Below, piece by piece: positions 1 to 28,412 of a stretch of 64,000 nt of DNA. A model generated the notes under the pieces. The model saw only the letters and a list, made by a program, of their open reading frames with translations, was not told the DNA's origin and made no database searches. The position numbers and the translations under genes are program-made. The DNA is from Candidatus Nomurabacteria bacterium (GTDB lineage Bacteria; Patescibacteriota; Saccharimonadia; Saccharimonadales; CAIOMD01), in assembly GCA_020631975.1 (NCBI GenBank), contig JACKGO010000002.1:71218-135217 (forward strand). Direction: 5' to 3'. The stretch's first letter is position 1. Each line of letters opens with the position of its first letter.

Positions 1-495
<495 letters not shown>

Positions 496-15608: not shown

Positions 15609-15610
15609 TG

Positions 15611-15974
15611 TAGCCAGATTGCCTATAAGCCGGGTTCTGTGATACGTCGATCATCTATCTAGGAATCGTATTGCTACGAATCTCAAGCGGGTTGACTTGG
15701 GTATAGCGGGCCACTAGCTTAAAAAGCACTACCCAATCCTTGCAGCCAACAGGGTTTACCCTCCTACTATGTCACCATAGTAAGCTGTGGGCTCTTACCC
15801 CACTCATTTCACCCTTACCTAGTATGCATTGCTGTCATAGTTAGGCGGTATCGTTTCTGTGGCACTTTCCCTAAGATTACTCTTGGTTGCCGTTAGCAAC
15901 TGTTGTGCCCTATACTGCCCGGACTTTCCTCCCGCATTTTTTTGAATGCAGGCGACCGACCGGCAATCTAGCTA
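15611..15974 (-). ncRNA. rnpB: RNase P RNA (bacterial type)
   Basis: The minus strand carries three conserved blocks. GAGGAAAGTCCGGGC is the rc of 15917-15931. AGGGTGAAATGAGTGGGGTAAGAGCCC is the rc of about 15789-15815. ACAGAACCCGGCTTAT is the rc of 15625-15640. A P1 helix can form between AGCTAGATTGCC (5') and GGCAATCTGGCT (3'). The ends are approximate. Confidence 0.9.
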
Positions 15975-15992
15975 CATCTATTATAGTACATC

Positions 15993-16793
15993 TTACTTAC
16001 TATTCGCGAACGCATCCAAGGCTTCGTTCACCATTGCATCAGCCTCTTTATTGTATTCACGTGGTATGTAAGTAAATGACACTCTATCGAAAGAATGTTC
16101 ACACAATTGCTTAATTGCTTGATGTATTGGCCACAACTCCCTGTTTTTAATTTTGTATATTCCGTTCATTTGATTTGCTACTAACTGACTATCTAAGAAT
16201 ACAGATACCGTACCATTGGTATATTGCGCACACGCCGCTAACCCAGCACGCACAGCTTGGTATTCTGCTTGATTATTCGTTGTGAGACCAATGTACTTAG
16301 AGCCCGATTCTAGTAGCTCATCATTAATATCTTTTACAACATACCCAAGAGCCGAAGGGCCAGGGTTACCACGAGAACCACCATCAGTATACAGCTTTAC
16401 CTCTGTTATTTTTGTTGCTTTTGTTACATCGTTTACACTATTATTTTGTGCTGCTATAAAGCTAAATTGGACTATCTTGATGGGTGTATCTTGTGTAACA
16501 AGGGGCCCATACTGTTCGCGAAAGTTATCTATGATATCTTGTTTGCTCCTAATTGTTGTGTCTATTTTATAATCTTTTTCTGTAATATCGCGTATGCATT
16601 TTTCCGTAACGCTCTGTATAGTACCGTTACCAATAGCATGCCATGTACCTTCATCGTCTGGATCTACTTTTTCAATAAATTGTATTTCATCGCCAACCGA
16701 AAGATGCTTTTCATCGAATATCTTCCAAACTATACGACGTGTACCGGCTAGCACTTGTTGTGCAAATGTATGATCGAGTTTAATTGTTTTCAT
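15993..16793 (-). CDS. ASCH-like domain fused to RNase HI-type ribonuclease H
   Basis: 266 aa. The C-terminal half has RNase H motifs (LYTDGGSRGNPGPSALGYV, NNQAEYQAV, DSQLVANQMNG, EYNKEADAMVNEAL). The N-terminal 120 aa resembles an ASCH/PUA-like fold (weaker call). Confidence 0.7.
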   Translation of the reverse strand: MKTIKLDHTFAQQVLAGTRRIVWKIFDEKHLSVGDEIQFIEKVDPDDEGTWHAIGNGTIQSVTEKCIRDITEKDYKIDTTIRSKQDIIDNFREQYGPLVTQDTPIKIVQFSFIAAQNNSVNDVTKATKITEVKLYTDGGSRGNPGPSALGYVVKDINDELLESGSKYIGLTTNNQAEYQAVRAGLAACAQYTNGTVSVFLDSQLVANQMNGIYKIKNRELWPIHQAIKQLCEHSFDRVSFTYIPREYNKEADAMVNEALDAFANSK

Positions 16794-16891
16794 TACGTAA
16801 GCATTATCTCACATAAACAGTATGGCTTAAAGGATTAGTAGTACGTAATAGTCACATCAAGTGATTATGACTCATCGTTCTTAAGATGTTT

Positions 16892-16973
16892 GGGGTGACA
16901 GGACTTGAACTTACGGCTACTGCCGTAAGGCTGCGTCGTTAATATGTAGGTCGCAGGTTCAAAGCCTGTCAGC
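16892..16973. repeat. tRNA-Pro-derived fragments: a direct 19-nt copy of the 3' end plus an inverted T-arm copy
   Basis: 16892-16910 is identical to 17000-17018 (tRNA-Pro T-arm and acceptor 3' strand). 16948-16973 (AGGTCGCAGGTTCAAAGCCTGTCAGC, plus sense) is an inverted copy of the tRNA variable/T-arm region, 23 of 26 identical. Between them lies the hairpin CTTACGGC-TACT-GCCGTAAG, which resembles a shortened anticodon arm. Confidence 0.65.
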
Positions 16974-16994
16974 TAATCAATACTAATTATTTTC

Positions 16995-17070
16995 TGGTCG
17001 GGGTGACAGGACTTGAACCTGCGACCTCACGGCCCCCAGCCGTACGCGCTACCAACTGCGCCACACCCCG
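16995..17070 (-). tRNA. tRNA-Pro (anticodon GGG), CCA encoded
   Basis: The rc reads CGGGGTG-...-TACGG-CTGGGGG-CCGTG-AGGTC-GCAGG-TTCAAGT-CCTGT-CACCCCG-A-CCA. This gives a clean cloverleaf of 76 nt. Confidence 0.9.
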
Positions 17071-17094
17071 ATAATCGATATTATTATAGCATTA

Positions 17095-17460
17095 ACTCTG
17101 GGCCGTGAGCCTCACGGTCACCTTTGGCGACCCCGTCGCAACATCATTCAAAACAAGTTTTGATTGAGTTGGCTCCCTTGCAACCCACCACCGGCGGGTT
17201 TCACCCCAGCCGTACGGTCACAACGGTCACAATCTTACTTGCAAGCTATGCATGCAAATTTGTTGCGACCCCACCTCAGCTTGGTCGCATTTGCGATCCA
17301 GGCTTCCGGTCTTGCGAATTGCCACAGGCAATTCTCACTACCAACTGCGCCACACCCCGATACGTACCAAAAACCCTGTCATCCGTTTGGATTCCTGCTG
17401 GAAAACCAAGTGGGTGTCCTCATTCTATACCCACGGGTATAGAGAATATTAGACTCCCCT
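17095..17460. other. GC-rich ORF-free block with tRNA-Pro fragments; probable structured RNA or element remnant
   Basis: Line 17161-17220 is 37/60 G+C, against about 40% in the background. All three plus frames are open (ORFs 17124-17462), which is a composition artefact. Many local hairpins are present, for example TGCGACC..GGTCGCA at 17264-17290 and CCGTGAG-C-CTCACGG near 17103-17117. The block contains the 25-nt and 13-nt tRNA-Pro copies. Confidence 0.5.
17338..17362 (-). repeat. exact 25-nt copy of the tRNA-Pro 5' end (acceptor and D-arm plus 2 upstream nt)
   Basis: 17338-17362 is identical to 17049-17073. A further 13-nt copy of the anticodon-arm 5' side (17204-17216) equals 17034-17046. 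Confidence 0.85.
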
Positions 17461-17539
17461 AAACATTATATTCAGAAATCAATGCTTGATGACAGGGCTA
17501 CTACTAGTATACGTCAGATATAGTATTCTCGCTACGTAT

Positions 17540-18178
17540 TTACAGTGTGATAAGTGTAGTATAAAGCCCCTCGTACATCGTTTGGAGAAATGGACCAAAA
17601 AACGGCATACCAACAAGAATCAGCGCCAGAATTATCAAGAATCCTACTTGCTCTAATTGATTCATAACTCGTTGCAATGGTTCTGGTGCAAATGCATACA
17701 AAACCCTAGAACCATCAAGCGGAGGTATCGGAAGCATATTAAATAAGAAGAACCCTATATTAATTTGTATAAAATAGCTCCACCATAGCTCCCAAAGACC
17801 TCCACTAATATGAGAAAACGAAAATATTACCCCGCCTATTACAGCCAAGCATAAGTTTACAAGTGGACCAGACACAGCAACGAGCGCCATACCAAATTCT
17901 TCTCCTTTTAGGCGATGCGCTTGCACAGGAACTGGTTTGGCGGCGCCAAAAATCGGTTGCTGCAAAATCGCCAACAGTAAAGGCAGTGCGAGGGTAAAAA
18001 ATGGATGAATATGAACCGCTGGGTTGAGCGTAAGTCGCCCTTCATCTTCTGCAGTACTATCGCCTAAATATTTTGCGACATAGCCATGAGTGACTTCGTG
18101 TAGTATAACTGATATTGCTATTGCAAGTATGGCGACAATGATAATTGTAAGCATATGTATTAGTATAACAAATCTCAC
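17540..18178 (-). CDS. site-2 protease (M50) family zinc metalloprotease
   Basis: 212 aa and polytopic, with the HEVTHG (HExxH) motif in the first TM region and a PIPPLDG motif. Confidence 0.8.
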   Translation of the reverse strand: MRFVILIHMLTIIIVAILAIAISVILHEVTHGYVAKYLGDSTAEDEGRLTLNPAVHIHPFFTLALPLLLAILQQPIFGAAKPVPVQAHRLKGEEFGMALVAVSGPLVNLCLAVIGGVIFSFSHISGGLWELWWSYFIQINIGFFLFNMLPIPPLDGSRVLYAFAPEPLQRVMNQLEQVGFLIILALILVGMPFFGPFLQTMYEGLYTTLITL

Positions 18179-28261: not shown

Positions 28262-28336
28262 TGGTGCGGGTGGCGGGAGTCGAACCCGCGTTTCAGCCTT
28301 GGGAAGGCTGCATAATAGCCGTTATACGACACCCGC
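28262..28336 (-). tRNA. tRNA-Gly (anticodon CCC), CCA encoded
   Basis: The rc reads GCGGGTG...CAGCC-TTCCCAA-GGCTG...GGTTCGACTCC...CACCCGC-A-CCA. Confidence 0.9.
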
Positions 28337-28412
28337 TGGAGCCACCTAGCGGAGTCGAACCGCTGACCTACGCGTTACGAGTGCGTTGCTCTACCAGCTG
28401 AGCTAAGGTGGC
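28337..28412 (-). tRNA. tRNA-Thr (anticodon CGU), CCA encoded
   Basis: The rc reads GCCACCT-TAGCTCAGCTGGTAGAGC...CTCGTAA...GGTTCGACTCC...AGGTGGC-T-CCA. Its CCA abuts the first base of tRNA-Gly. Confidence 0.9.

Follow-up and report, generated by a model that had tools for sequence, protein, structure and literature searches.

In a 64,000-nt stretch of DNA from Candidatus Nomurabacteria bacterium (assembly GCA_020631975.1, contig JACKGO010000002.1, positions 71,218-135,217; hereafter the window), the gene for tRNA-Pro(GGG) is preceded by an exact copy of its own 5′ end and by a 264-nt non-coding insert, which we call X (17074-17337, minus strand). X is missing from the closest relatives and has the features of a structured RNA module in the sense of the tRNA. 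The same module stands at the same spot in two distant relatives, which argues for a real, undescribed RNA element linked to a tRNA and against random decay. We propose, with a probability of about 45%, that the tRNA fragment and X form an old structured leader RNA, derived from the tRNA, which RNase P releases and which deletion between the repeats easily removes. Read along the minus strand, the locus comprises an M50 site-2 protease gene, a 6S-like RNA, the fragment with tRNA-Pro positions 1-22, X, the complete tRNA-Pro(GGG), a downstream block Y (16892-16994) and an RNase H gene. The best matches of the neighbouring window proteins place the host among the Saccharibacteria (TM7, Saccharimonadales). 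In what follows, numbers of the type L080 designate the loci of relatives.

The tRNA-Pro gene and its stranded 5′ end

The original prediction, made from this DNA alone, had placed an intact tRNA-Pro(GGG) at 16995-17070, and both ARAGORN and Rfam (RF00005, 63.3 bits) agree; the gene is on the minus strand and encodes its CCA. It had also described an exact 25-nt direct copy of the 5′ end, and 17338-17362 is indeed identical to 17049-17073 at a spacing of 289 (repeat search; BLAST E 3.5e-8 window-wide). The repeated 25-mer holds tRNA-Pro positions 1-22 and three leader bases (TAT), i.e. -3 to 22. The upstream fragment (17338..17362, minus strand) lies 14 nt past the 6S-like RNA, at the place where the tRNA starts in relatives, as judged by alignment with L091 and L082. 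Positions 22 and 23 of the tRNA are about 289 nt apart, a distance taken up by X and the second copy of -3..22. Within X, a further 13 nt (17204..17216, minus strand) repeat 17034-17046 exactly, that is tRNA positions 25-37, the 5′ strand of the anticodon stem plus the loop. The window-wide E of this predicted match is only 0.5; the piece recurs within the homologous X elements of other genomes. The 8-nt piece CCGTGAGG is better explained by an internal duplication of about 100 nt within X (repeat D5).

The sequence upstream of the complete tRNA had been presented as a single 360-nt block of about 60% GC, without stops in three frames and folding into many stable hairpins. The block is composite, as its part at 17363-17460 (about 95 nt) belongs to the 6S-like RNA and is present in relatives without X. 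Its GC content is lower than stated, 51.5% over 17074-17337 and 55.6% over 17100-17360 (41.9% in the window), and the three plus-strand frames are open across the core only, with 2, 4 and 1 stops over 17074-17460. No real open reading frame was found in the region, and BLAST against the whole window returned no second copy of the block. The claim of stable folding stands, since 17071-17465 beats shuffled sequences on both strands (z -3.95 and -5.3), and so does that of a structured RNA rather than a protein, since the helices stay paired via compensatory changes in three lineages.

The insert in the species and its close relatives

X is absent from L081-L088, L091 and L112, whose gene order is identical to that of the window (alignment). 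The gap between the M50 and RNase H genes measures 746 nt in the window against 392 nt in L081-L088, 294 nt in L091 and 415 nt in L112. The M50 proteins of these relatives are close to that of the window, at 76-83% identity for the group and, taken singly, with identities of 80-81% (database search) or 84% (local BLAST) in L081-L088, 83% in L091 and 78% in L112, and the alignment shows that some 130 nt past the M50 gene are conserved as well. The tRNA of L091 begins 19 nt past the 6S-like element, and this distance is 19-70 nt among the relatives lacking X overall.

The arrangement with X recurs in at least seven further assemblies of the species, made from different samples and 97-100% identical, which excludes an assembly artefact. 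Assemblies GCA_020428475.1 and GCA_035404785.1 come from samples that contain the species. The upstream fragment is monomorphic in the eight sequences (the window and seven assemblies); the copy of the tRNA 3′ end in Y is polymorphic. X itself varies within the species by the presence or absence of a 9-nt tandem duplication and by stem-improving changes in two hairpins. The window X is longer than its distant homologues owing to the species-specific internal duplication of about 100 nt (repeat D5, spacing 100). A repeat search found no terminal inverted repeats joining the ends of X; the duplication at its borders is of 22-25 nt.

Some assemblies differ at the repeats themselves. In L106, a JGI assembly of the window species, a 10-nt tandem duplication (CGCGTACGGC twice; 2592-2625, about window 17040-17049) lies inside the complete tRNA-Pro. 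It would break the D and anticodon stems, and points either to an assembly error or to a dispensable tRNA. In L103 (2724-2930, about window 17052 and 16863-16891) the complete tRNA, but not the upstream copy, has an extra C in its D loop, which is also seen in the relative L082, and a divergent patch lies just downstream of the 3′ copy; we tentatively read these changes as recombination with another lineage. The contigs of the L073 species (L117-L120) all stop about 230 nt past the M50 gene and several contigs of the window species (within L108-L111) begin at the tRNA. Short-read assemblies thus appear to break here at the 22-25-nt repeat.

Homologous elements in distant lineages

The original prediction had proposed a comparison of the locus among relatives. 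X, absent from the closest ones, has homologues in two distant lineages, L080 and L073, where it starts at the identical junction, G22 followed by TGAG. The M50 proteins of these lineages are only 44-45% identical to that of the window and 66% identical to each other. In both, the 6S-like RNA is followed by a copy of tRNA positions 1-22 or 1-23, the TGAG junction, an X of about 170 nt and the complete tRNA. The stranded fragment matches the tRNA of its own genome in each of the three lineages, though these tRNAs vary in their D loops and at positions 5 and 6 (their starts are CGGGGUG, CGGGGCG and CGGGAUG, the last with an extra D-loop C). The internal 25-37 piece is 13 nt long in L073 and 9 nt in L080, both with C27 like their own tRNAs, and the window has U27 in both piece and tRNA. 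Motifs and fold are kept across a very deep divergence, which suggests that X and the fragment are selected as RNA, or continually regenerated in a site-specific manner.

We built a covariance model, R1, from the three lineages bearing X. The model scores these at 193, 122 and 108 bits and finds nothing else significant in 89 sources, nor a second copy in the window. A partial X is kept by L112/L113, inside the clade of the window, where a remnant homologous to the second GGGGYCG..GUGRCCGU.AGGCU unit (see below) shows compensatory stem changes and occurs without the fragment. This argues for an old presence of the element followed by loss. X is absent from the neighbours of L073 (P0197, P0122). 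Loci with larger gaps between the M50 and tRNA genes hold neither X nor an integrase, and have unrelated genes or hairpins there. A metagenome scan with the M50 protein gave five loci, none of them informative.

A shared fold of four modules

The three lineages share one fold of four modules with differing stem sequences. In the window, module 1 (17304..17337, minus strand) consists of TGAG, hairpin P1 (AATTGCC/GGCAATT), CGCAAG and ACCGGAA, which provides the 3′ strand of helix P2. P2 is stacked on P1 and joins the D-loop bases UUGGU of the fragment to ACCGG of X (RCCGG in general). The dot-bracket structure of module 1 is identical in the three lineages, with stems AAUUGCC, GGCUGCC and AACUGCC; two pairs are changed on both sides and four on one side. 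Module 2 (17275..17303, minus strand) is a three-tier hairpin, P2a, with the same architecture and different sequences in the window species, L080 and L073, and its outer helix covaries (A-U/G-C/C-G). Module 3 (17216..17272, minus strand) opens with the conserved GAGGNGGGGUCG and continues with a long hairpin, P3, closed by GGUCG/UGACC; it contains the 9-nt tandem duplication (17224-17232), missing in L105 and L106. After the copy of tRNA positions 25-37 comes module 4 (17180..17203, minus strand), a hairpin, P4, found at the matching place in the three lineages (GAAACCCGCC.., AACCC-GCAA-GGGUU and UCGCG-GAA-CGCGA), whose stem is improved by the changes in L105/L106. Further on, at 17100..17140 (minus strand), repeat D5 and motif matches reveal a second, shortened GGGGUCG..GUGACCGU.AGGCU unit with the palindrome CCGTGAG-G-CTCACGG.

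Four column-aligned pairs are changed on both sides across the three lineages, and the linkers CGCAAG, CCGGA, GAGGNGGGGUCG and GUGACCGYACGGCU of X are invariant. The G·U pairs would become A·C on the opposite strand, which points to an RNA in the tRNA sense. X has therefore the compensatory changes and the strand-specific G·U pairs by which structured non-coding RNAs are generally recognized, in three lineages only. We found by eye no partner for the acceptor strand of the fragment inside X that is common to the three lineages. We also considered GAGGNGGGGUCG as a decayed copy of tRNA positions 42-50 or 2-7, and the similarity is too short to claim it.

The 3′ end of X carries a sequence resembling an extended -10 promoter, TGCTATAAT (17083..17091, minus strand, read from the sequence), 12 nt before the complete tRNA. 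Equivalents are found in L080 (TGGTATAGT) and L073 (TGATAAACT), and the distance to the complete tRNA is 8-13 nt across the three lineages. A simple scan requiring a -35 hexamer gave no sigma-70 promoter.

Known RNA classes and the possibility of an intron

Rfam searches of the window and of the relatives bearing X, at the gathering score and at E up to 10, gave nothing for X or Y, from ribozyme families either. The earlier suggestion of a tRNA-linked RNA outside Rfam families holds well in this respect, X contains pieces derived from tRNA-Pro, and the absence of group I, group II, transfer-messenger RNA (tmRNA) and signal recognition particle (SRP) signatures, first judged by eye, agrees with the Rfam and ARAGORN scans. 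As for tmRNA, with its tRNA-Ala-like ends and tag reading frame, ARAGORN finds none in the window and Rfam has no match; the bacterial SRP RNA models, which include the conserved domain IV, give no match at E up to 10. A group II intron, with domain V/VI and an intron-encoded protein, has neither an Rfam match nor a real open reading frame to its credit.

The possibility of an intron deserves a closer look. The fragment would then be the true 5′ exon, and X with the second copy would be an intron in the D arm, at 22/23, either self-splicing (group I-like) or of a new kind. Patescibacteria tRNA genes commonly hold group I introns, which are often missed by RF00028 (PMC13011429), and P2 pairs the would-be exon end (UUGGU) with a guide-like internal RCCGG via U·G pairs. 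Yet, the complete tRNA downstream, with its own promoter, makes splicing unnecessary. The break at 22/23 also falls outside the anticodon loop, where the group I introns of Patescibacteria lie (35/36 and neighbours, PMC13011429). The group I rule that the exon ends in U and the intron in G cannot hold, since with a 22-nt direct repeat the last bases of exon and intron are the same nucleotide. Besides, the core of X has four hairpins in about 170 nt without P3-P9, RF00028 has no match at E up to 10 in the window, L080 or L073, and no other Rfam intron family matches in any lineage at this threshold. The intron-like alternative raised by the original prediction fails on these counts, i.e. signal, site and repeat geometry, and we regard it as extremely unlikely.

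A leader RNA or an integrative element?

If the fragment and X are a leader RNA, they would be transcribed in the tRNA sense as the 5′ leader of tRNA-Pro, from the promoter of the 6S RNA or from an ancestral tRNA promoter beside the fragment, and RNase P would detach the leader where the complete tRNA starts. With the extended -10 at the 3′ end of X, tRNA-Pro could stay independently expressed. The element may have arisen long ago, when the tRNA gene was partially duplicated over its 5′ part and the copy was remodelled into a separate RNA, and might have been inherited in a few Saccharibacteria lineages. Deletion between the 22-25-nt repeats would remove it and restore the 6S-tRNA arrangement of the nearest relatives. 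The fragment would stay identical to the tRNA because it has a task within the RNA, or else by gene conversion. This origin is close to the decayed tandem tRNA gene with insertions that had been suggested before, except that the element is conserved rather than decaying. The duplication does not extend in degraded form into the leaders, since those in front of the two copies show no significant similarity (p 0.3-0.9), and this suggests that the tRNA part alone is constrained or newly made. The remnant in L112 and the lack of mobility genes fit a leader RNA. We infer that its role is likely cis-acting, in processing or insulation between 6S RNA and tRNA-Pro, or else a mimicry of the 5′ half of tRNA-Pro.

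Several observations weigh against a leader RNA inherited from an old ancestor. Each lineage bearing X has sisters without it (L040 with 76% M50 identity to L080, L053 with 80% to L073, L081-L088/L091 with about 84% to the window), so that vertical descent needs many independent losses. In an alignment read by eye, with no computed distance, the window X looks at least as close to the X of L073 as that of L080 is, which is discordant with the host tree. A 22-nt copy kept identical over deep divergence needs selection or gene conversion, and L103 tolerates a one-base mismatch between its two 5′ copies. The element is known from three lineages and one remnant only, and the covariation statistics are thin. 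Finally, the transcript ends and the RNase P step are putative, and no function can be named with confidence.

Part of this evidence would suit the main rival, which we consider unlikely, namely a miniature, non-autonomous integrative element with site specificity for the D arm of tRNA-Pro(GGG), of which X would be either the whole or the conserved end. X would bring a replacement promoter and tRNA positions 1-22, thereby restoring the gene, and the original 5′ end of the host would stay upstream. The recombinase would act in trans, or the element would spread by natural transformation and homologous recombination. The distribution of X is indeed sporadic, with X-less sisters, and X carries its own extended -10 promoter. 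As in attachment (att) scars, direct repeats of the tRNA end flank DNA missing from relatives; they lie exactly at the tRNA terminus, end at the same internal base in the three lineages, and their perfection follows naturally from integration. As a small inverted repeat, the D stem and loop resemble the core sites of tyrosine recombinases. The dusA-specific integrases, whose elements enter the 5′ end of the gene and restore it, set a precedent for such targeting (PMC4482086).

Yet, there is no integrase, transposase or other mobility gene near the three loci or at the loci with enlarged gaps. The spacers between the repeats have only 264 nt and 89 nt, housekeeping genes surround the locus, and a unit of 170-290 nt cannot move alone. 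Pattern scans of viral contigs and blastn against phages gave nothing, or the tRNA 25-mer only, and both “phage” records matched by the 25-mer contain tRNA-Pro genes. The lack of terminal inverted repeats speaks against integration and, with a duplication of 22-25 nt, led us to reject a miniature inverted-repeat transposable element or an insertion sequence. Covariation of the RNA type, with G·U pairs on the sense strand, is unexpected for att arms, and both the internal 25-37 piece and the repeat-less remnant in L112 misfit a clean att structure. Hence, of the integration scars proposed in the original prediction, those downstream of the tRNA are a reasonable case and the one around X is a live rival to a leader RNA, for which neither a recombinase nor a larger element was found.

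One might also speculate that the fragment and X represent a new class of tRNA-resident RNA, a proposal that strikes us as rather improbable. Such an RNA could be self-propagating, with the RCCGG guide reading the D loop, insertion after G22 and copying of the 5′ exon, or it could be a riboregulator that mimics the 5′ half of tRNA-Pro and controls the maturation of a 6S-tRNA-Pro transcript.

Partial tRNA copies beside tRNA genes are usually dismissed as integration scars. Here, a fragment that looks like such a scar belongs to a conserved structured RNA without an Rfam family and is perfectly maintained, in a phylum of tiny genomes that nevertheless keep unusual RNA elements. If functional, the element would be a leader or regulator derived from a tRNA and tied to the unit of 6S RNA and tRNA-Pro. 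If mobile, it would be an unusually small element targeting the 5′ side of a tRNA gene.

The block downstream of the tRNA

Within Y (16892..16994, minus strand), tRNA positions 44-67 recur in inverted form and the tRNA 3′ end in direct form, together with a hairpin, TTACGGC-AGT-AGCCGTAA. The copies match what had been predicted. The direct one, exact over 19 nt, is 16892-16910, which equals 17000-17018 or tRNA positions 53-71 (E 1.3e-4), and the inverted T-arm copy at 16948-16971 is 92% complementary to 17004-27 over 24 nt. The predicted fold of 16892-16975, a long stem closing two hairpins, was recovered on both strands (-40.0 and -31.4 kcal/mol, z about -4 to -5). In some strains the 3′ copy extends to 24 nt including CCA, and it is polymorphic within the species (GACCA vs AAACA). 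L082, L091 and L080 have no counterpart of Y. It is probably a separate, species-specific rearrangement of the direct-inverted-direct type, neutral, or an old att scar.

Y raises the question of whether all copies, X included, are non-functional debris left by slippage, template switching or unequal crossing-over at a tRNA locus prone to duplication. The locus certainly abounds in duplications, of 9 nt and about 100 nt in X and of 10 nt in the tRNA of L106, to which Y adds its direct-inverted-direct structure. Y has no homologue elsewhere and its 3′ copy decays within the species. Even an unrelated scaffold, L115 (MT839022.1, an unverified “bacteriophage” from human faeces), has at 480-870 a tandem repeat of about 190 nt, unrelated to X in sequence, whose first unit closes with about 36 nt from the 5′ part of a tRNA-Pro, truncated there, and whose second unit closes with a complete tRNA-Pro(TGG). 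But the motifs and the fold of X are conserved at about 45% identity of the flanking protein, where neutral DNA would be unrecognizable, and the upstream fragment is perfect in all three lineages. Judging from the sequences compared, debris would fit Y and is contradicted by conservation for X, and as an account of the whole locus it is very unlikely.

The 6S-like RNA upstream

The 6S-like RNA gene (E1) lies at about 17368-17500 on the minus strand (to 17515 with the upstream part), with TATACT upstream at 17506-17511 and a closing stem followed by a U run. The element sits between the M50 gene and tRNA-Pro(GGG) in many Saccharibacteria. It is conserved, rod-like and paired at its ends, with compensatory changes in 18 of the 26 consensus pairs (18 sequences). 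Full-length matches to 6S RNA (RF00013) occur at the same place in L080, L073 and L053, at 25.4-30.6 bits against a gathering score of 46.4; the copy in the window has no Rfam match to 6S at E up to 10. E1 resembles 6S RNA in length (about 130-150 nt), paired ends and strong covariation, and differs in being shorter than a typical 6S RNA and below threshold in relatives. This suggests that Saccharibacteria have a 6S-like RNA missed at Rfam thresholds.

The tRNA-Pro(GGG) gene lies beside the M50 gene on the opposite strand in L013, L027, L005, L044 and L074. Hence, this tRNA locus seems to have been repeatedly inverted or rearranged in Saccharibacteria.

Gene order and other features of the window

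Along the minus strand, the order is ribosomal L28 gene, M50 site-2 protease gene (17540-18178), a gap of 746 nt, RNase H fusion gene (15993-16793), RNase P RNA (15610-15971), L20, L35 and IF3. Pfam assigns an RNase H domain (RNase_H, RVT_3) to the 266-aa product of the RNase H gene, and a weak ASCH match was seen in a relative. The gene lies immediately upstream of that for RNase P RNA, an order kept in all five relatives scanned (L040, L053, L082, L091 and L112). Near the L28 gene upstream of M50, L040 (3615-3710) and L001 (3634-3731) show sub-threshold matches to the rimP leader (32-36 bits), possibly reflecting a structure associated with L28, or chance. Elsewhere in the window, the genes for tRNA-Gly(CCC) and tRNA-Thr(CGT) abut at 28262-28412 (minus strand) with zero spacer (28336/28337) and an encoded CCA each (ARAGORN coordinates), and the window edge truncates a 16S rRNA gene, whose 5′ third occupies 1-493 (minus strand).

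Comparison with known systems

ROOL and GOLLD are orphan structured non-coding RNAs of 500-800 nt, often adjacent to tRNA genes and often borne by phages, which have Rfam families. X resembles them in its conserved fold, its place beside a tRNA gene and its discovery by comparative analysis. They differ from it in having no built-in copy of the 5′ end of the neighbouring tRNA.

The group I introns of Patescibacteria tRNA genes are similar to X in being structured RNAs that interrupt tRNA genes within this phylum, with a sporadic distribution, and that standard annotation misses. Their core is that of group I, their site is the anticodon loop, and they come with neither exon duplication nor an intact gene downstream; X fails each of these points. 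The elements of the dusA-specific integrases share with X the insertion in the 5′ part of a gene, the supply of a replacement 5′ end with a promoter, and the original 5′ end left upstream. Yet, their target is a protein gene, and they span kilobases and encode an integrase, whereas the X unit has 170-290 nt, no genes and covariation of the RNA type.

The closest parallels in arrangement are perhaps the scars of integration at tRNA genes. Repeats of 178 bp that include the 3′-terminal 19 nt lie downstream of E. coli tyrT, and the att site of pSAM2 lies in a tRNA-Pro. As in these cases, exact copies of a tRNA terminus flank a segment of other sequence beside an intact gene at our locus. Y matches the pattern of such repeats well, with a 3′ copy of 19-24 nt placed 108 nt downstream. 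X departs from it, since the 5′ end of the tRNA is duplicated, no integrase or island accompanies it, and what lies between the copies is a structured RNA conserved across deeply diverged lineages.

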